This document shows positions 11,188 through 19,044 of a DNA stretch of 20,000 nucleotides, one piece after another. A program made the position numbers and the translations under genes. The notes below the pieces were generated by a model. That model had not been told where the DNA came from and searched no databases. It saw only the letters and a program-made list of their open reading frames with translations. Source of the stretch: Deltaproteobacteria bacterium (GTDB taxonomy: Bacteria; JAGRBM01; JAHCIT01); NCBI GenBank assembly GCA_026129095.1, contig JAHCIT010000013.1, positions 44,887 through 64,886 on the forward strand, given 5' to 3'. The stretch's first letter is position 1; each line of letters opens with the position of its first letter.

Positions 11188-11574
11188 ATGAAAACCGACA
11201 CGGTATTCGTGGACGCCACGCGCGTGGTGACGGATGCGGGCCGCATCTCGCTGTTTTTGTGGGTGGATGTCATGCGCGGAGACGGTGGTGAGGTGCTGAC
11301 CGGCGAGCCGGCGAGGCTATGGGTCGAGCTGGAATGGGAAAAGACCGGTGGCGAGGCGGAATCTCTCCGAATGTACGAGGAGGCAGTTCCTGCCGAGTGG
11401 CTCACCGGTTCCGCGCCTGACCGGAGGCTCAAGGCCAGAGTCCGGGCGCTGTTCGAGGAAGGCCGGGACCGGATGTACGCCGTGGGTGCCGGCGGGACGA
11501 TGGCATGGGCCCGTGACTGGATGAAGTCGGGCCGGCCGGCCGGGAAAACTCCTAGTTCAGGAACGGCAGAATAG
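11188..11574 (+). CDS. Hypothetical protein, 128 aa
   Basis: ATG lies 11 nt after the SDR stop, fills an otherwise empty gap and has protein-like composition. No recognisable motif. The 3' end overlaps the convergent gene by 23 nt. Confidence 0.55.
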   Translation: MKTDTVFVDATRVVTDAGRISLFLWVDVMRGDGGEVLTGEPARLWVELEWEKTGGEAESLRMYEEAVPAEWLTGSAPDRRLKARVRALFEEGRDRMYAVGAGGTMAWARDWMKSGRPAGKTPSSGTAE

Positions 11575-12778
11575 GCATGCCGGTCTTGGGATCAGTATCG
11601 AGCAGGACGGCTTCCAGATAGAAAACGAGATCCAGCCAGTAGAACAGGCAGTAGGCTCCTGCCACCAGGAACAGGATGAAGCTGGGCCAGAAAACGGCCT
11701 TGCCGCAGGGTTTTGCAGCGGCTCCGGGCCATATCCAGTTGCCGATGAAGACCCCAATCGCCGTCATCAGGTAGCTGGCAATGACGAGCCGGGGCTCGCG
11801 GCCCGAGATGTTGACCATGGACTCGACATCTCCGGTACCGAAGGTAAGCCAAGCGGTGACACCGAAAAGGATGGCGAAAAGCGGCAGCAGCCAGAGCGCC
11901 GTTGAACCGGCAGAACGCGCCAGTTCCTTCCACGGGGCGGGGGCCGGAGCGAGCCAAACCAGCGTAATGGCGGAGAGCGCGAGCAGCAGGAACGATCCCA
12001 GCAGTGCCTGATAGCGGGCGACGTAGAGATGGGCTTTCACCCGCTGGGCGGGGCTGGGGGGCGGGACGCCCAGTTTTTCGCCAAGCGCGGTAGCAGCATC
12101 ATAGTAGGCGGCCGACTGGGAGTAGCGGTTTCGCGTAAACTCCAGATCGCCCAGACCTTTCAGTGCAAACGCCGCCGACAGGGTGCCGGGATAACGGTCA
12201 AACACCATCCGGTACAAACGGCGTGAATCATCGAAACGGTTCTGACGGAACGCATTCTTGGCAAGGAAAAAGAGATATTCGGGCGAACGCGGATAGCCGG
12301 GATTGGCCTCGGTAAGCCTGAGCATTTCCTGCTCGAATGCTTCCTCACCGATGTCCTTCCGGGTGTCGAGGAGTTTCTGGAACTCCTTGTAGGTTGCCGC
12401 CCATTTACCCTCGAACGGAAGCAGTGAGGGGAGCCGCCGCTCCACGCGGGCCGCTGCACGGCTGTCATGATAGCGGGAGACGACCAGCCGGTATATTTCG
12501 AGTGCGCCGTCCACATCGTGAAGTTGCTGGTCACGGATGAAACCACACTGAAACAGCGCGCTCGGCGCTGACGGGCTGGCGGGGTATTTGTTCGCCACTT
12601 CCAGATAGATCCGGCAGGCTTCATCGAGATTCCCCGCCGTCTCAGCCTTCTGGCCCTCGACGAACAGGATCTCGCCAGGTTCCTCCGGCGCAGATGCCTC
12701 GCCGGTAGCAAGTACGGCCAGAGGCATCAGGCCGCAACCATATGCAGCAACCAGAAGGAGACCCCGCCAGCGGGCCAC
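11552..12778 (-). CDS. TPR-repeat protein with an N-terminal signal peptide and about 4 C-terminal TM helices (hypothetical)
   Basis: Hydrophobic N-terminus ending AVLA. CpoB/BamD-style helical repeats (YPASPSAPSALF, NPGYPRSPEYLF, YPGTLSAAFALK). The last ~150 aa contain four hydrophobic stretches. GTG lies 2 nt after the upstream stop. Confidence 0.8.
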   Translation of the reverse strand: MARWRGLLLVAAYGCGLMPLAVLATGEASAPEEPGEILFVEGQKAETAGNLDEACRIYLEVANKYPASPSAPSALFQCGFIRDQQLHDVDGALEIYRLVVSRYHDSRAAARVERRLPSLLPFEGKWAATYKEFQKLLDTRKDIGEEAFEQEMLRLTEANPGYPRSPEYLFFLAKNAFRQNRFDDSRRLYRMVFDRYPGTLSAAFALKGLGDLEFTRNRYSQSAAYYDAATALGEKLGVPPPSPAQRVKAHLYVARYQALLGSFLLLALSAITLVWLAPAPAPWKELARSAGSTALWLLPLFAILFGVTAWLTFGTGDVESMVNISGREPRLVIASYLMTAIGVFIGNWIWPGAAAKPCGKAVFWPSFILFLVAGAYCLFYWLDLVFYLEAVLLDTDPKTGMPILPFLN

Positions 12779-12780
12779 GG

Positions 12781-13851
12781 CTATTTCTTTCCTGCCGGCC
12801 TGACGGGCGGTGTCGTAACCGCCGGTGCGGTGCCGATCTGTTGCACTTCCATCCGGACGCGGTGCTGTGTGTCATAGGTATAGTGGTGCGGTGCAGGGAT
12901 GGTCAGAACGCCGTTATAGTAGAGTTCAGCCTTGAGAGGGACCGAAAGTTCACGATCAATCCAGATTGTGCCCTCATAGTTTCGCACCGTGATGCCGGGG
13001 TTTTCTCCGGTATAGTGAGAGGGGCCCGTCTTGTACTGGTCTACGGTCCTGCCCAGCCATTCTCCCACCCCTGCGAGCTCGTAGCCGATGGCCTGCCGGG
13101 TTTCGTTGACCCACCGGCGGAGAAGGTCATGGGAAAGCAGATCGAGTTGCCCTGAAGTGATGGAATTCAGAAGCTGCTGGTCTTCCTCAGGTGACTGCTC
13201 GTTGATGTCAGCGGCCTGCTTGTCGCCAGGCCGCTGAAGGAGCGGCCGGTTCCCGATCAGCCAGAACTGGCTCTTGTAAAGCGGCTTGTGGAAGGTCTGG
13301 GCGGGACTATCGGTATCGACGTTGTAACTGGCGTGCCAGTCTCCGTTCGAAGCCTTGGTGAAACGCACGGCACCCTTGCTGTATACCTTGCCCAGCTTCG
13401 GCTCCGAACTTTTCATCTCGAAACTGAAATCGACCACGAAGGACGGCAGGTTGTCGAAAGTCCGCCGGAACGGCTGGTTAACGGCAGCGATGACCGACGA
13501 CAATGTTTCGGGAAGCTTCTCAGGGACTTCTTCTTCCTGCCGGCGTCCCTGGTGCATGGTCATCGGTTCGAGTGTCACGCCCTGCATCTCGGGCTCCACC
13601 TCACCCTCTGCATAGAGCTGCCCGGATTCCATGCGCTGTTCTTCCACCCATGCACGGGCCTTCTTGACGTGGTCCACTTCCGCACCCCGTTGCGGTGGTG
13701 CCGACGGGATGAGGCCATCCGGAAGTTCCGAACGGGTAGTGAGGTACAGAAGATAAATGCTGACCACGACCGCAATGGCCAGCGCCGCCATGACAAAGCG
13801 GCGAACATTGTCCGCTTTCGGGACTGGTGGACTGGATGGAGGCTCAGTCAC
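12781..13851 (-). CDS. Single-pass membrane-anchored protein with a beta-rich soluble domain (hypothetical), about 356 aa
   Basis: GTG 13851 overlaps the TGA of the upstream peptide (GTGA). RR followed by TM helix FVMAALAIAVVVSIYLLYL; C-terminal alternating beta-strand pattern (GTIWIDRELSVPLKAEL). Confidence 0.75.
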   Translation of the reverse strand: MTEPPSSPPVPKADNVRRFVMAALAIAVVVSIYLLYLTTRSELPDGLIPSAPPQRGAEVDHVKKARAWVEEQRMESGQLYAEGEVEPEMQGVTLEPMTMHQGRRQEEEVPEKLPETLSSVIAAVNQPFRRTFDNLPSFVVDFSFEMKSSEPKLGKVYSKGAVRFTKASNGDWHASYNVDTDSPAQTFHKPLYKSQFWLIGNRPLLQRPGDKQAADINEQSPEEDQQLLNSITSGQLDLLSHDLLRRWVNETRQAIGYELAGVGEWLGRTVDQYKTGPSHYTGENPGITVRNYEGTIWIDRELSVPLKAELYYNGVLTIPAPHHYTYDTQHRVRMEVQQIGTAPAVTTPPVRPAGKK

Positions 13852-14087
13852 GATGCCGCTTCCGTCCCGGACTGGCCCGGCATGGGCTCGCCGTGGCCTG
13901 GTTTCACACGGCTTCGCAGGTAAGCCGAGATGACCGGTATCGCTACCATGAGAAAACCCGAAAAGATCACAAGCGGTGTGAGATCGGCACCGATCGAAGA
14001 CGAGTTCGGGTTGTAGCCGAACTTCACTTCGAGCACCCGTCCGCGCCGCCGTTTCCACGGCAGTATCCATTTGCTCCAGAACGACAT
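13848..14087 (-). CDS. 79-aa membrane-anchored peptide with a VKFGYNPNSSSIG motif; candidate rSAM substrate
   Basis: GGAG SD upstream of ATG 14087 and an in-frame stop 7 codons upstream. Its stop is coupled to the next start. Layout: basic patch, polar motif, one TM helix (about L39-L57), polar tail. Confidence 0.75.
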   Translation of the reverse strand: MSFWSKWILPWKRRRGRVLEVKFGYNPNSSSIGADLTPLVIFSGFLMVAIPVISAYLRSRVKPGHGEPMPGQSGTEAAS

Positions 14088-14261
14088 CCTGCAAGTCTCC
14101 GGTCGTTATCCAGCAGTCGAAGCTCCACCATAGCACCGGCGCGGCTGGCGCGGGAAGGGGAGATTATCCCGGACACCCTTCGCCATTATTGTCCAGTTAA
14201 TGAGTTCTCGCCGTTACAGGGCAGATTGGATATATTTGGCTGAACAGGGCAGCATTTCCGG

Positions 14262-15455
14262 ATGGATACCAAGGCGGGCTGGCGATACCGGTACGAGCCG
14301 TTCGGCGGGATTATCTCCGTCGAGGAGCCGCCGCTCCTCATGCTGGTGGACCAGGACTACCTGCGCGAGCGGGGCGTGGCGGAAAGCCCGGCGTGGAGTG
14401 AGCCCTGGGACGGCCAGCTTTCGGCGCCGACAGAAGTGCATCTGGCGCTCACCAACTATTGCGCTGCCGGCTGCACGGCTTGCTACATGGACTCGCGGCC
14501 GACTGACCGGCTGGAGACCGAACGGAAGGATTATGAACTGGCCCTGGGCCGGATCCGTACTCTGGCTGGAATGGGTGTATTCCATGTGGCGCTGGGCGGC
14601 GGAGAGACGCTGGAAGTGCCGTGGCTGTTTGATCTCGCCGCCGAGATGAGAAAGCTCGGCATGGTACCGAACATCACGACGAGTGGCCTGGGCATGACGG
14701 AGGAGAAAGCCCGCCGTTGCCGGATATTCGGGCAGGTGAACGTGTCGGTGGATGATCTGGGCGAGCGTTACCGCGAAAGCCGCGGATACCAGGGGTTCGA
14801 GGCGGCTGAGAAAGCAATCGGCTTGCTGCAAAGAGAGGGCATCCCGGTTGGCATCAACTGCGTCATCTCCCGCAAGAACATCGGCCACCTGGATGAGATA
14901 TTCGCCTGGGTGAAGCGGAATAAACTTCTGGAGATCGAGCTGCTGCGCTTCAAGCCGGCGGGACGTGGCGCCGAACACTATGGGGAGTTCTGCCTCACGG
15001 CGGAGCAGGCGGAAAACTTCTTCCCGCAGGTAAAAACACTCACGCGCAAGCACCGGATCCGGGTAAAACTCGACTGCTCGTTCGGGCCGTTCGTCTACTT
15101 CCACAAGCCAGACCGGGAGACCGTGCGGTTTTTCTCCATCCGGGGCTGCGAGGGGGGCAACTGGCTCGCCGCCGTCCACCCCGATGGCCGGGCGGCCCCA
15201 TGCAGTTTCGCCTGGGATGAAAGTGTTCCGGTGGCTGATCTGCCCTCGAAATGGAAAGACCCGTCGGCCTTTGCCAACTTCAAGGCATGGTGGACAAACC
15301 CGCCTGAGCCCTGCGCCTCGTGCGACTATCTGGACCTTTGCCATGGTGGATGCCATGCGGTGTCGAAACACACGAACGGCAGTTTCCAGGCACTCGATCC
15401 CGAGTGTCCTTCGGTGCGGCGCTACCGGGCGGGACTGGAGGGGAAGCAGGGATGA
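14262..15455 (+). CDS. Radical SAM/SPASM-domain protein (PqqE/MftC/anSME-like architecture)
   Basis: CAAGCTAC (C67/C71/C74, nt 14460-14483), LGGGE, TTSG, VSVD. SPASM cysteines C296-x17-C314 and C351xxC354-x5-C360xxxC364-x17-C382, plus C272. Confidence 0.95.
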   Translation: MDTKAGWRYRYEPFGGIISVEEPPLLMLVDQDYLRERGVAESPAWSEPWDGQLSAPTEVHLALTNYCAAGCTACYMDSRPTDRLETERKDYELALGRIRTLAGMGVFHVALGGGETLEVPWLFDLAAEMRKLGMVPNITTSGLGMTEEKARRCRIFGQVNVSVDDLGERYRESRGYQGFEAAEKAIGLLQREGIPVGINCVISRKNIGHLDEIFAWVKRNKLLEIELLRFKPAGRGAEHYGEFCLTAEQAENFFPQVKTLTRKHRIRVKLDCSFGPFVYFHKPDRETVRFFSIRGCEGGNWLAAVHPDGRAAPCSFAWDESVPVADLPSKWKDPSAFANFKAWWTNPPEPCASCDYLDLCHGGCHAVSKHTNGSFQALDPECPSVRRYRAGLEGKQG

Positions 15456-15928
15456 GCCAGATTGTTTTTGAATCGTCGGCGCGTCTGCTCACGCTGCTGC
15501 ACGGTCTTGCCGGAATCGCGCTTACTGGCGCACTTACCCACGGGGCGGTTTTCATCTGGAAAGGAAACCGCACCGGGGCGGCGGGCTACTACCGGCGGGC
15601 GGAGAAGTTCTGGCCCGTCATTCACATATCGCTCTTTGCTTCCATGCTGCTGGGGTTCATTGCCTACCCGACCTACCGGATCCGTACCCGCGCCGAGTTC
15701 CTCGACGCCCACTATCCGCTGGTGGTGGACCTGTTCGATCTCAAGGAAAACTACGCCTCGATCGTTTTCGTGCTGGTGTTCGGGGCCTGGCTCCTCCGTC
15801 ACGCACCGCTCAAAAGCCAGGCGCGGCAGCTTCTGCACGACAACTTCTACTACGCGGCCACGGCCCTTACCTGGCTTATTGCCGTGCTGGGGCTATGGGT
15901 GACGCTGCACCGGGGGATCGGTACATGA
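15452..15928 (+). CDS. Integral membrane protein, about 4 TM, 158 aa (hypothetical)
   Basis: ATGA overlap with the rSAM stop; four hydrophobic helices; YPTYR..RAEFLD..P...LFDLKEN loop. Confidence 0.8.
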   Translation: MSQIVFESSARLLTLLHGLAGIALTGALTHGAVFIWKGNRTGAAGYYRRAEKFWPVIHISLFASMLLGFIAYPTYRIRTRAEFLDAHYPLVVDLFDLKENYASIVFVLVFGAWLLRHAPLKSQARQLLHDNFYYAATALTWLIAVLGLWVTLHRGIGT

Positions 15929-16299
15929 GTGAAGCTCCAGAAAACAGTACGAAAGGCACCGGCGTGGCTGCTGCCGCGATTCTGGTGAGCACCTTTGGGC
16001 TCATGTTCGCGCTTCTGGCGATTCTTCCTGTCAAGGTGCCCGCCTACATCCCGCTGGAACACCGCTGGCAGTGGGGGATGCCCGATCCTCCGCTCATCGG
16101 GATGGACTACTACGGCCGGACCATCGTCGCGCTGGTTGTGGCGGTCGTCGCTTCCGGCATCGCCTGGATCATCGCCGGTCCCGTTGCCAGATGGAAACCG
16201 GCTGAAAACTCCCAGGGGGTGAAGATGCTCGCTATCTACGCCTTCACAGGGACGGCGCTGTCGGTGTTCATCTACTGCTATACGCTCGTATTCAAGTGA
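15925..16299 (+). CDS. Integral membrane protein, about 3 TM, 124 aa (hypothetical)
   Basis: ATGA overlap with the previous stop; three hydrophobic helices; aromatic loop YIPLEHRWQW...GMDYYGR. Confidence 0.8.
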   Translation: MSEAPENSTKGTGVAAAAILVSTFGLMFALLAILPVKVPAYIPLEHRWQWGMPDPPLIGMDYYGRTIVALVVAVVASGIAWIIAGPVARWKPAENSQGVKMLAIYAFTGTALSVFIYCYTLVFK

Positions 16300-16417: not shown

Positions 16418-17830
16418 ATGGTCGGCATCATGGCATACGGGGCATATGTCCCCTTTCACCGGCTCCAGCGCAAGGCGCTCAACGAGGCCCACGGCAAGCC
16501 GGGAGGCAAGGGCGAGCGGTCGGTTGCCAACTACGACGAGGATTCGGTTTCGATGGCGGTTGAGGCCGCCTGGAATGCCTTGTGGAAATACGACACGAAG
16601 CAGGTGGGGACAGTCTATCTCGGCACGACGACGAATCCGTACGCCGAAAAGGCTTCCAGCACGACTATTGCCGCCGCCCTCGACATGCCACCGCAGGTCC
16701 GCACGGCCGATTTCGGTGATTCGCTCAGGGCGGGTTCGAGTGCCCTGCTGGCGGCGCTGGATGCGGCAGTCTCGACGGGTAAGCCCGCACTGGCGCTGGC
16801 CGGGGACTGCCGGATCGGCGGAGCCGGTGGCGGCAACGAAAGCAGTTTCGGTGACGGGGCGGCCGCGTTCCTGTTCGGAACAGGGGATCTTGTGGCGCGG
16901 GTGCTGGCGACGGCCAGTGTTGCCAACGAGATCGTGGACAACTTCCGCCGCCATGAGGACGTGATGGTCCGCAACTGGGAAGAGCGGTTCGGCATTGTCC
17001 AGGGTGTGAACCGGGCCATACCTGCAGCGGTGAAGCAGGCGCTCCAGCAGGCGGGTCTCAAAGGGGAGCAGGTGGACCGGTTCGTCTGCGCCTCGCCTTC
17101 GAGCAAGGCAACGCAGGCCGTGGCCAAGATGTGCGGCATCAGGCCGGAAGCCATCGAGGATGCGCTGGAAGCCACGGTCGGCCAGGCAGGCGCCGCCCAC
17201 GGACCGATGATGCTCACCGGGGCACTGGAAAAGGCGAAAGCCGGCGACAAAATCCTTTTCGTATCTTATGCCGAAGGAGCCGATGCGCTGCTCTTGGAGG
17301 CGACACCGGGCATTGACGCCTGGCGCCCCAAGCGGCACCTCTCTGACCTTATTGAACGCAAGCGGAACGACATCCGCTACACGGACTACCTCAGGTGGCG
17401 GAATCTGCTTGATTTCGAGCCGCCCCGCCGCCCGGAAATGAAGCGTCCGGCAGCAACTGCCATGTTCCGGAACTATCACCAGAACCTCGGCCTCTACGGA
17501 AGCCGCTGCACGGCTTGCGGAGCATTGAGCTACCCCAAGCAGCGTGTCTGCTGGAAGTGCCGTGCCAAGGACAAGACCACCGACTACTCGTTCCGTACGG
17601 CCAAGGGAAAGATACGGACATTTTCGGCCGACCATTTGGCCTACACACCTGCGCCGCCGGAACTGCTGGTGGTGATCGATTTTGAGGAAGGGGGACGGCT
17701 CATGTGCAACATGGCCGACGTTGACCTCAAGAACGTCAAGGTTGGCGAGCCGGTCGAGATGACCTTCCGCCGGCTCTATGAAGCGGGTGGAATTTTCAAC
17801 TACGCATGGAAAGCGAAGGCGGCGGGCTGA
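16418..17830 (+). CDS. HMG-CoA-synthase-like domain fused to DUF35 (zinc ribbon plus OB fold)
   Basis: GIMAYGAYVP..RL, GERSVANYDEDSVSMAVEAA, GDGAAAF, SYAEGADA. C-terminal CTAC-x10-CWKC and GEPVEMTFRRL...NYAWKA. Confidence 0.9.
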   Translation: MVGIMAYGAYVPFHRLQRKALNEAHGKPGGKGERSVANYDEDSVSMAVEAAWNALWKYDTKQVGTVYLGTTTNPYAEKASSTTIAAALDMPPQVRTADFGDSLRAGSSALLAALDAAVSTGKPALALAGDCRIGGAGGGNESSFGDGAAAFLFGTGDLVARVLATASVANEIVDNFRRHEDVMVRNWEERFGIVQGVNRAIPAAVKQALQQAGLKGEQVDRFVCASPSSKATQAVAKMCGIRPEAIEDALEATVGQAGAAHGPMMLTGALEKAKAGDKILFVSYAEGADALLLEATPGIDAWRPKRHLSDLIERKRNDIRYTDYLRWRNLLDFEPPRRPEMKRPAATAMFRNYHQNLGLYGSRCTACGALSYPKQRVCWKCRAKDKTTDYSFRTAKGKIRTFSADHLAYTPAPPELLVVIDFEEGGRLMCNMADVDLKNVKVGEPVEMTFRRLYEAGGIFNYAWKAKAAG

Positions 17831-17862
17831 TCCAGCCTTCCTCTTAAGGGGAGTACGAAATC

Positions 17863-19044
17863 ATGGCAGGAACCATCAAGGACCGTGTGGCAGTCGTCGG
17901 CATGGGATGTTCGAAGTTCGGCGAACGCTGGGAATCCAGCGTTGAGGACCTGCTCGTCGAGGCAGCCTACGAAGCCTATGAATCGGCTGGCATAGACCCC
18001 AAGCAGCTCGAAGCGGCATGGTTTGGCACCATGAACTCCGGCCGGGCAGCCCTGCCGCTGTCGCAGTCGCTGAAGCTCGACTACATCCCGATTACCCGCG
18101 TCGAGAACATGTGCGCTACCGGCAGCGAGGCCTTCCGGAATGCCTGTTATGCGGTCGCTTCTGGTGCCTATGACCTGGTGATGGCGATCGGTGTCGAGAA
18201 GCTGAAGGATTCCGGCTATTCCGGTCTCACGTCAGCCATGCCCGATTCCGACGGTACCGAGCCGAACCTCTCGGCTCCATCGGCCTTTGCGCTGCTGGCC
18301 CCGGCCTATGCGGCCAAATATGGCGTCAGTACCGAGAAGATGAAGGAGGTACTTTCGCGCATTGCCATGAAGAACCACGCCAACGGGGCGCTCAATCCCA
18401 AGGCGCAGTTCCAGAAGGCAGTCTCGATGGACGAGTGCCTGAAGTCACCCACGGTGGCGAGCCCGCTGGGCATTTTCGACTGCTCGGGGGTCGCCGACGG
18501 GGCCGCTGCCGCGATCATCTGCCGGGCCGAGGATGCCCACAAGTACAACAAGAAGCCGATGTACGTGAAGGCACTCACCATTGCCGCCGGGACGGGGGAG
18601 GGTGCACTCAACCCGGACTTCGACTTCACCATGATCAATGAGAACGTCCGCGCCGCGAAGGAAGCCTACCGGCAGGCGGGCATCACAGACCCGGCGAAGC
18701 AGATCTCCATGGCCGAAGTCCATGACTGCTTCACGCCGACCGAGCTCGTTATCTACGAAGACCTCGGTTTCACCGCTCGCGGGCAGGGCTGGAAAGACGT
18801 TCTGGACGGCGCGTTCGAACTGGGCGGCCGTTTGCCCGTGAACCCCGACGGCGGCTTGAAAAGTTTCGGTCACCCCATCGGTGCGTCCGGCCTCAGGATG
18901 CTCTACGAATGCTGGCTCCAGTTCCGCGGTGAGGCGGGAAAACGCCAGCTTCCCGACCCCAGGCTGGCTGTCACCCACAACCTGGGCGGCCAGCCTTGGC
19001 GTTGCGTCGCCTTCGTCAGTGTCGTCGGCAAAGAGGCCGGGTGA
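17863..19044 (+). CDS. Thiolase, SCP2/type-2 (acetyl-CoA acetyltransferase family)
   Basis: VGMGCSKFGE, VENMCATGSEA (Cys84), KNHANG..NPKAQF, DGAAA, AEVHDCF, NPDGGLKSFGHPIGASG, HNLGG. GGGGAG SD. Confidence 0.93.
   Translation: MAGTIKDRVAVVGMGCSKFGERWESSVEDLLVEAAYEAYESAGIDPKQLEAAWFGTMNSGRAALPLSQSLKLDYIPITRVENMCATGSEAFRNACYAVASGAYDLVMAIGVEKLKDSGYSGLTSAMPDSDGTEPNLSAPSAFALLAPAYAAKYGVSTEKMKEVLSRIAMKNHANGALNPKAQFQKAVSMDECLKSPTVASPLGIFDCSGVADGAAAAIICRAEDAHKYNKKPMYVKALTIAAGTGEGALNPDFDFTMINENVRAAKEAYRQAGITDPAKQISMAEVHDCFTPTELVIYEDLGFTARGQGWKDVLDGAFELGGRLPVNPDGGLKSFGHPIGASGLRMLYECWLQFRGEAGKRQLPDPRLAVTHNLGGQPWRCVAFVSVVGKEAG

Follow-up and report, generated by a model that had tools for sequence, protein, structure and literature searches.

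The locus and its genes

The window analysed here, a stretch of 20,000 nucleotides from a Deltaproteobacteria bacterium (contig JAHCIT010000013.1), carries between positions 11552 and 16299 two divergent three-gene units, among whose products are a radical S-adenosylmethionine (SAM) enzyme with a SPASM domain and a small membrane-anchored peptide with an Asn-Pro-Asn-Ser-Ser-Ser (NPNSSS) motif. A sequence-only reading had proposed the six genes to be one undescribed cassette, in which the enzyme modifies the peptide. Comparison of related loci, as described below, shows that enzyme and peptide form a near-obligate pair, and that the conserved unit thus has two genes and not six, with the peptide as the probable substrate of the enzyme.

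All six open reading frames (ORFs) and their junctions were confirmed by an ORF check. Both plus-strand junctions, from the enzyme gene to that of a four-helix membrane protein (4TM) and from there to that of a three-helix membrane protein (3TM), are ATGA overlaps; on the minus strand the peptide gene joins the gene of a beta-rich protein by a GTGA overlap, and a 2-nt gap separates the latter from the gene of a tetratricopeptide repeat (TPR) membrane protein (Table 1). Hydropathy gave one helix each for the peptide and the beta-rich protein, a signal sequence plus four helices for the TPR protein, and three for the 3TM protein; the 4TM protein had three by hydropathy, but its predicted model shows a bundle of four. 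A search between positions 11400 and 16500 gave no sigma-70-like promoter, and the contigs from RNA runs lying over the locus, one of them flat across the spacer like DNA and three patchy, were uninformative on expression.

Table 1. Genes and features of the locus, with positions in the window
Feature	Position	Strand	Basis
Radical SAM/SPASM enzyme, 397 aa; core gene	14262..15455	+	PF04055 and TIGR04085 above cut-off
Four-helix membrane protein (4TM), 158 aa, DUF2269-like; accessory	15452..15928	+	Profile counts, model
Three-helix membrane protein (3TM), 124 aa; accessory, usual partner of the 158-aa protein	15925..16299	+	
Membrane-anchored peptide, 79 aa; core gene, probable substrate	13848..14087	-	Linkage, fusions
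Anchored beta-rich protein, 356 aa, candidate LppX/LprAFG (LolA-like) fold; local addition	12781..13851	-	Atlas lead
TPR protein with signal peptide and four membrane helices, 408 aa; often found as partner	11552..12778	-	TPR Pfam matches
Divergent spacer, 174 nt; lineage-specific layout	14088..14261	.	
Enzyme N-terminal three-strand meander and helix (residues 7-36), candidate partial peptide-recognition element	14280..14369	+	
CxxxCxxC radical SAM cluster motif (C67, C71, C74)	14460..14483	+	Invariant, 43 relatives
SPASM region, eight invariant Cys (272, 296, 314, 351, 354, 360, 364, 382)	15075..15407	+	
Peptide tag G24-x-N26-P27-N28-S29-S30-S31, after a basic strand	13995..14018	-	153-row alignment
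Single membrane helix of the peptide (residues 36-54), with basic C-terminal flank	13926..13982	-	Hydropathy

The enzyme and its family

The enzyme scored 46.9 bits against the radical SAM model PF04055 (cut-off 29.5) and 41.3 bits against the SPASM model TIGR04085 (cut-off 27). Of 4,752 candidates, more than 1,700 are relatives at E<=1e-30; beyond the three nearest, the matches listed show 44-51% identity. The NPNSSS core is met in records named Myxococcales, Desulfobacteraceae, Planctomycetota, Terriglobales, Elusimicrobia, Clostridia, Spirochaetales, Fibrobacteria and Bacteroidales. Eleven Cys residues, the three of the CxxxCxxC motif and eight further, are invariant in 43 aligned relatives, and the Cys motifs tested were present in 81 of 81 family members. 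The family was not found in viral contigs or plasmids. The host genome also holds four radical SAM genes in tandem (G000:C23:44396-50474).

None of the curated models for characterised enzymes reached its cut-off, the best being that of MftC (TIGR03962, 103.6 bits against 265), followed by PqqE (TIGR02109, 91.3 against 381), the AhbC, AhbD and NirJ heme enzymes (66-73 against 500-650) and the anaerobic sulfatase-maturating enzyme (anSME; TIGR03942, 32.2 against 349). In trees the family forms a branch of its own. Neighbourhoods were read in two sets of loci, the best 80 of 341 enzyme relatives from GTDB and the best 80 of 497 from metagenomes, of which some contigs may underlie GTDB genomes. 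In 80 loci there were no neighbour families of the MftA, MftB, MftD-F or pqq-operon kinds, and no sulfatase among the recurring neighbours. The expectation that the enzyme is neither MftC, PqqE, AhbC/D nor NirJ was thus borne out, and it belongs to no curated family tested, though it would work like a SPASM maturase guided by a peptide-recognition element (RRE). Searches of full-text literature gave no paper on the motif or the system, in agreement with its being undescribed; subscription papers and bioRxiv supplements were outside the scope of that search, and a listing of the family there in an atlas of radical SAM enzymes is possible. The string NPNSS does not occur in supplementary files of PMC9062424 and PMC10288494 on radical SAM enzymes of ribosomally synthesised, post-translationally modified peptides (RiPPs).

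The structure model of the enzyme (predicted local distance difference test score 94.6) matched SuiB best (Z 28.5, root-mean-square deviation 3.3, 358 aligned), with SkfB (Z 25.6), CteB, anSME (Z 24.1), ChlB and PqqE as the next matches. DSSP assigned strands to residues 7-12, 15-20 and 25-30 and a helix to residues 31-36 of its N-terminus, and only the alignments with SuiB (from residue 1) and SkfB (from residue 5) reached its first residues. A full RRE is laid out as three strands and three helices. Residues 1-36, with three strands and one helix overlaying the SuiB/SkfB N-terminus in the model, are thereby a candidate for half of such an element, found without any match to a hidden Markov model: N-terminal fragments of nine enzymes gave no RRE or MftB match and no NCBIfam match. 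The remark in the sequence-only reading that the cassette has no PqqD accordingly holds for a free RRE chaperone, but has to be set against this overlay of the enzyme's own first 36 residues.

The NPNSSS peptide and its linkage to the enzyme

A profile of five sequences found 444 representatives of the peptide at 50% clustering (E<=0.001), so that its ORF is more than a chance reading frame. In an alignment of 153 rows (148 new rows listed plus the five seeds), the G, N, P, N, S and S of the tag were each conserved at 100% and the third S at 99%; these rows were selected by the profile, yet the identical motif stands in loci selected by the enzyme. A basic strand, GR[IV]Lx[VI][KR], precedes the tag and one membrane helix comes after it. 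Among 143 peptides, the 10 residues before the helix contain a mean of 0.07 K/R and the 10 after it 3.3, while the 14 residues ahead of the motif, the leader, contain a mean of 4.1. The tag Gly is followed by a variable residue (Y 41%, L 18%, M 16%, F 7%, V 6%) and no Cys is invariant. The peptide thus lacks the invariant Cys or aromatic residue of a sactipeptide, ranthipeptide or cyclophane core, and for this reason thioethers and cyclophanes are unlikely products. A prepilin-type cut at the invariant Gly was set aside, as six polar residues lie between Gly and helix. Pfam, NCBIfam and PADLOC gave no family assignment for the peptide, the 3TM protein or the beta-rich protein, nor did PHROGs for the peptide. 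In a related strain (run X1), the peptide gene differs at three listed sites between 14040 and 14064, all third codon positions, two of the changes being silent and one replacing Ile by Met.

Neighbours were counted by profile searches of six-frame ORFs, with the peptide counted when within 6 kb of the enzyme. By this measure it was present in 73 of 80 GTDB loci and in 73 of 80 metagenome loci. Five of the seven GTDB genomes without it there encode it elsewhere, two (G045 and G048) showing none, and all seven metagenome misses have less than 1.2 kb of upstream sequence. In a sample of 201 genomes from the phylum of a Myxococcales record, with the best 29 and 9 candidates per genome scored, enzyme and peptide were found in the identical 18 genomes, always adjacent and on one strand; neither was seen in the family relatives G002 and G003. 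The peptide shares the strand of the enzyme in 70 of the 73 GTDB loci, and the divergent layout occurs in two of them, L003 and L004 (L004 and L083 being one contig). It is also seen in L447; these loci all come from the order of the window, to which the layout is therefore special.

Two further lines of evidence tie the two genes together. Among 12 longer proteins that match the peptide, two (P0281 and P0282) are clean fusions, in which motif, helix, linker and whole enzyme follow in frame; frameshifts led to the removal of P0279 and P0283, and the remaining long matches look like mis-started or chimeric calls. In one genome (G165, L466:6659-10933 on G165:C11) both have decayed within a preserved gene order of 4TM, 3TM, TPR, peptide, enzyme and phosphoesterase: the peptide retains its helix but has lost the motif in all three frames, and the enzyme stops at 249 aa with its SPASM domain deleted, whereas 4TM, 3TM, TPR and phosphoesterase are intact. 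No intact copy of the enzyme was found elsewhere in that genome. The pair thus has the co-conserved small precursor with an invariant core that is expected of an RRE-dependent RiPP maturase, and the proposal that the peptide is the partner and probable substrate of the enzyme gains from linkage in both sets of loci, from all 18 genomes and from the two fusions. Among the GTDB relatives, an enzyme in whose genome no peptide was found, which would have spoken against the proposal, was met in G045 and G048; relatives without the membrane genes were common.

Partner genes and the limits of the unit

The other four genes recur far less regularly than the peptide, as counted with profiles built from GTDB members, many contigs being short. 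The TPR-membrane protein was found in 44 of 80 GTDB and 33 of 80 metagenome loci, the 4TM gene in 30 and 34, and the 3TM gene in 29 and 28. The 4TM gene occurs in 19 of the 201 genomes, namely 7 of the 18 with the enzyme, so that it is missing from 11 of these, and 12 of the 183 without an intact enzyme; of 10 loci read from the latter genomes, 9 have a 3TM gene near it. The pair forms a stand-alone module without an intact enzyme at L465-L474, and at L473 it adjoins a phosphoesterase of 1,232 aa. The beta-rich protein was found in only 1 of 80 loci (L003) and is missing from the order-level relatives L004 and L447.

These counts bear on the view that all six genes form a single dedicated complex. 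Their tight coupling in the window, the identical gene order in L003 and the joint presence of peptide, TPR, 4TM and 3TM genes in 7 of 42 well-flanked GTDB loci agree with it, but the near absence of the beta-rich gene, the 4TM/3TM genes missing from about 50 of 80 loci and found without the enzyme, and the mostly co-directional peptide do not. As a general unit the six-gene complex is largely refuted, and we now regard it as highly improbable. Of the co-occurrence across genera that the sequence-only reading had named as a check, that of the peptide was found regularly and that of the two membrane proteins in a minority of loci.

The 158-aa 4TM protein has invariant H17, Y72-P73, R76, R80, F95-D96 and K98-E99 and a near-invariant H30. 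A weak DUF2269 match was seen in 2 of 28 members, the Atlas gave a score of 0.94, and a wide fold search with its model found generic helical bundles only (best Z 14.4, designed proteins; cytochrome bd and CcmF about 11). H17 and H30, lying in the predicted bundle, are candidate ligands of a possible DUF2269/CopD-like heme or metal site. For the beta-rich protein, the Atlas gave a lead, and a lead only, to LppX_LprAFG/DUF6612 clusters (features 0.92, structure TM 0.62-0.64).

The recurring neighbour families, clustered from a simple gene caller that misses some genes, include a secreted metallophosphoesterase resembling purple acid phosphatases, found in 25 of 80 GTDB loci (0.84 Mb in all) compared with two in the 3.67-Mb host genome, and in 8 of 80 metagenome loci. 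This link hints at phosphate-ester scavenging or sensing, but the locus in the window itself has no such gene. In some of the phosphoesterases the metal ligands are altered and a CcdA/ArsG-like membrane domain is present; these stand beside a redoxin. Those of L024, L027, L031, L053, L062 and L075, with altered metal motifs (GDND, SWHxY) and thioredoxin-like plus CcdA/ArsG-like fusions, are probably pseudo-enzymes or sensors; five of these six loci have two peptide genes. TPR proteins with a purple-acid-phosphatase N-terminal domain in front were seen at L013:2326-4095, L449:7874-9691 and L453:4932-7028. That the 4TM/3TM pair replaces a redoxin/CcdA chain is unproven: the seven redoxin loci have no 4TM gene, but L004 combines CcdA, a DsbA-like gene and 4TM. 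Copies of an Lnt-like apolipoprotein N-acyltransferase adjoin the system at L003:1701-3137, L005:8277-9089 and L454:2063-3592, and a DUF2950-like protein comes after the enzyme in L027, L031 and L073.

Where the peptide is encoded at a distance from the enzyme, it still has TPR, redoxin and phosphoesterase genes beside it in L449 and L453 (two of the five such regions read from other genomes), and redoxin and phosphoesterase in L452; L450, L451 and L454 show none of the three. At L452:4555-9880 (G049:C1) the NPNSSS peptide, redoxin and a degenerate phosphoesterase directly follow two other radical SAM genes and a PqqD gene, which we take to resemble a SynChlorMet cassette; G049 encodes its family enzyme elsewhere.

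No regular protease, exporter or tailoring enzyme was found across 80 loci, an Rce1-like protease being present in four, and the conserved protease and exporter of a secreted RiPP cluster are thus lacking. This bears on the idea that the peptide gives rise to a product that is released, either a secreted RiPP or a cofactor like mycofactocin or pyrroloquinoline quinone (PQQ), with the helix as a temporary anchor that is later cut off. MftC and PqqE being the top curated models, the redoxins and CcdA/ArsG-like domain at some loci and the Rce1-like protease would fit such a product. The scores far under the cut-offs of those models, and a helix that holds family-specific sequence and outlasts loss of the motif, speak with the missing genes against it, and we consider it improbable; the sequence-only reading had likewise favoured a product that stays in the membrane over a secreted RiPP, and the loci examined here are consistent with this.

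The flanks of the locus hold housekeeping genes without relation to the unit. A 128-aa ORF at 11188-11574, with a 23-nt overlap with the end of the TPR gene, has no family and was excluded from the system, as relatives occur in 0 of 80 loci. Downstream, at 16418-19044, lies a pair that reads, by sequence, as a fusion of a 3-hydroxy-3-methylglutaryl-coenzyme A synthase-like domain with an OB-fold, and a thiolase; it is not a recurring neighbour.

Tagged proteins and sister enzymes in phages and defence operons

Some phage proteins begin with a G-F-V-S-N-S-S-S tag, spaced as in the peptide. A scan of viral contigs found arrays of such tagged genes; in 42 of 80 loci a radical SAM gene lies no more than 4 kb away, and some of the genes overlap; in the reverse scan, tagged ORFs were present in 77 of 80 phage enzyme loci compared with 0 of 110 bacterial control loci. 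The 287 distinct tagged ORFs have a median length of 125 aa and none has a membrane helix. The neighbours of the phage and defence-operon enzymes begin with F-V-S-N-S-S-S, which gives a register in common with the peptide of [IV][KR]-x-G-x-x-x-N-S-S-S. The phage enzyme is phrog_7293 and the tagged proteins are phrog_7397, both PHROGs of unknown function. Large phages (L284-L363) carry up to 11 tagged genes around a single radical SAM gene, and the phage enzyme is also found in 172 GenBank phage records, mostly KP15-like.

Profiles of the peptide-linked enzyme family and of the phage enzymes matched with a probability of 99.7 at 25% identity. Against the phage profile, the median score of 81 family members was 53 bits (range 34.5-91.2), and no score above 47.3 was reached by the 41 true outgroups; the 44 intended outgroups had turned out to include 3 family members. 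A branch uniting the family with the phage and defence-operon enzymes had support in the Shimodaira-Hasegawa-like approximate likelihood ratio test (SH-aLRT) of 93 with 74 rows, and values of 99/92 and 99/94 with 42 and 38 rows, in unrooted trees of which the smaller were made without long branches and near-duplicates. As outgroups served the host's own enzymes and, from 151 genomes, the 30 loci that scored best with the MftC model. Eleven residues (G16, A110, G112, R130, P136, N137, T139, L228, K231, D271 and S315) are specific to this clade, being present in at least 80% of 23 family and at least 75% of 17 phage or defence enzymes and in less than 25% of 34 outgroup enzymes. With a supported branch and diagnostic residues, as far as unrooted trees and limited outgroups allow, we infer that the enzyme belongs to a wider clade acting on NSS tags of the same register.

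The phage arrays also bear on whether the peptide is the target of the enzyme or an adaptor, whose motif docks the enzyme at the membrane for modification of a lipid, a small molecule or a partner such as the phosphoesterase. Docking would account for linkage and co-decay too, the fusions would tether the enzyme to the membrane, and Lnt-like acyltransferases (L003, L005, L454) and an LppX/LolA-like protein are among the neighbours. These neighbours are however rare and local, six invariant polar residues exceed the needs of a docking strand, and the sister phage enzymes adjoin up to 11 different soluble tagged proteins, which fits the tag as target. An adaptor is in our view unlikely, though of the other explanations it is the one that we would credit most.

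Two plasmid operons, from Rhodobacter (L364:3601-8056) and Rhizobium (L365:3575-8026), combine a SMEK-domain STAND nucleoside triphosphatase (NTPase), a tagged small protein and an enzyme that bridges the groups, and represent a candidate undescribed defence system in cultured hosts; the soluble tagged protein and the enzyme from Rhodobacter have the accessions WP_157764683.1 and WP_232520758.1. According to PMC11564622, the radical SAM protein Avap1 is required for KpAvs2 defence against some phages, and in supplement file 4 of that source Avap2 begins, by eye, with a similar-looking strand. No match to PF19902, the domain expected of the Avap partner, was found for the peptide or the tagged proteins; PF19902 was not found in 301 genomes either, in a search to which no positive control responded, and viral contigs showed no Avap2-type motif. 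The operons suggest an explanation in which the peptide is a signalling or defence switch, with a tag that stays in the cytoplasm and, once modified, governs a sensor complex of the TPR protein; the sister enzymes may have such a part in the STAND-NTPase operons. Their tagged small protein, the need for Avap1 and the basic leader, which favours a cytoplasmic N-terminus, would agree with this, but PADLOC models fitted 0 of the non-enzyme genes of the window and no defence genes recur among the neighbour families; we hold such a switch to be quite improbable.

A proposed mechanism

Among these explanations we favour, as reasonably probable on present comparisons, a two-gene post-translational modification system with a peptide that is kept in an envelope complex. 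The cytoplasmic enzyme would grip the basic strand with its N-terminal meander and abstract a hydrogen from the N28-S29-S30 stretch, a step that we think likely; these residues would be the prime targets because N-S-S is the part common to the phage tag. The product would most likely be a two-electron oxidation (-2 Da). Conversion of Ser to formylglycine, as in anSME, and a cross-link of Ser to Asn through a Ser-O ether or a C-C bond, as in TqqB, are two tentative forms between which we have no preference, while epimerisation or backbone cleavage would each be a clearly less likely outcome.

The modified peptide would, with somewhat better than even odds, not be released but stay anchored by its helix, its modified end probably outside. 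In an envelope complex it would serve as cofactor arm or minor subunit, its partners there being the TPR-membrane protein and, depending on lineage, the secreted metallophosphoesterase, a redoxin or the 4TM/3TM pair. The irregularity of exporters and proteases and the neighbours kept by some enzyme-distant peptides support retention. The charge bias around the helix, together with fusions that place the cytoplasmic enzyme after it, would put the C-terminus on the inner side of the membrane and the modified end on the outer, which is also the side of the TPR and phosphoesterase domains; modification would then come before membrane insertion.

Several observations weigh against this explanation. 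The proposal of a modification is drawn from comparison throughout, and the basic leader would disfavour easy translocation of the N-terminus. The N-terminal element of the enzyme model amounts to no more than half an RRE, and no model in the libraries matched it. G045 and G048 hold an intact enzyme and no peptide was found in them, with genome completeness not given; the co-decay is that of a single genome, and the fusions are one or two gene calls each. Of all the proposed partners, the peptide is the sole universal one, and the two phosphoesterases of the host lie on other contigs than the window locus. As to the wider clade, the phage enzymes sit on a long stem, the outgroups were restricted to MftC-like enzymes, and phage KP15 has the enzyme but 0 of 7 translated neighbours start with the tag.

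With its Asn-Pro-Asn-Ser-Ser-Ser core beside a membrane helix, the peptide suggests chemistry not yet on record and, once modified, a fixed place in the envelope, and the link to phage and defence tags would supply soluble substrates in cultured organisms. It is a speculative but possible extension that one clade writes a new residue into a portable N-S-S tag with three uses: as a membrane-bound cofactor arm for phosphoesterase envelope complexes here, in arrays of soluble proteins in large phages, and in accessory proteins of NLR-like defence operons. If true, this would be a portable, tag-directed protein modification with new chemistry for any cargo; a short tag turned into a reactive residue by one enzyme could be a protein-labelling tool, and the clade might help to explain why Avs2-type defence has radical SAM accessory proteins.

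Comparison with known systems

To our knowledge, characterised SPASM maturases act mostly on soluble peptides with Cys or aromatic cores. The closest likeness is to SuiB/SuiA (streptide) and SkfB/SkfA, which gave the best fold matches, with alignment into the N-terminal region, and which share the small adjacent peptide gene. Identity to SuiB and SkfB is however 17-18%, with only three strands and one helix at the N-terminus of the enzyme, and the present peptide differs from SuiA and SkfA in its membrane helix; it has neither an invariant Cys or Trp nor a Lys-Trp pair, and proteases or exporters are not regular neighbours of its gene. The anSME/AtsB enzymes have an eight-Cys pattern and a CxPxR/SxPxR substrate motif. 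They resemble the present system in fold, in the eight SPASM Cys and in a Ser-containing motif near the N-terminus of a protein destined for the envelope; the score against their model is far below cut-off, the peptide lacks CxPxR/SxPxR, and no sulfatase recurs as neighbour. MftA/MftB/MftC and PqqA/PqqD/PqqE provide the top sequence models and the same logic of peptide plus enzyme, whereas here there is no free RRE chaperone, no downstream pathway gene and no C-terminal Tyr core, and a membrane anchor instead. With phrog_7293 and phrog_7397 the system shares a tag in the same register, sister position of the enzymes in trees and the 11 common residues, but the phage tags stand on many soluble proteins of about 125 aa and fewer Cys make up the set of the phage enzymes.

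That radical chemistry can act on polar aliphatic motifs is known from the streptococcal RiPP enzymes TqqB and NxxcB. PMC9389541 describes a Thr-Gln ether for TqqB, with Asn tolerated as acceptor and Ser a marginal donor, and an Asn beta-thioether for NxxcB. Their substrates are soluble and secreted, and their models were not among the best 25 of 49 matches of the enzyme. Retention of the product has its counterpart in QhpD/QhpC and CrpC/CrpA, where, according to PMC13692751, an RRE-guided SPASM enzyme modifies a protein that is retained; those enzymes form Cys thioethers, whereas the NPNSSS peptide carries its invariant tag without any conserved Cys.

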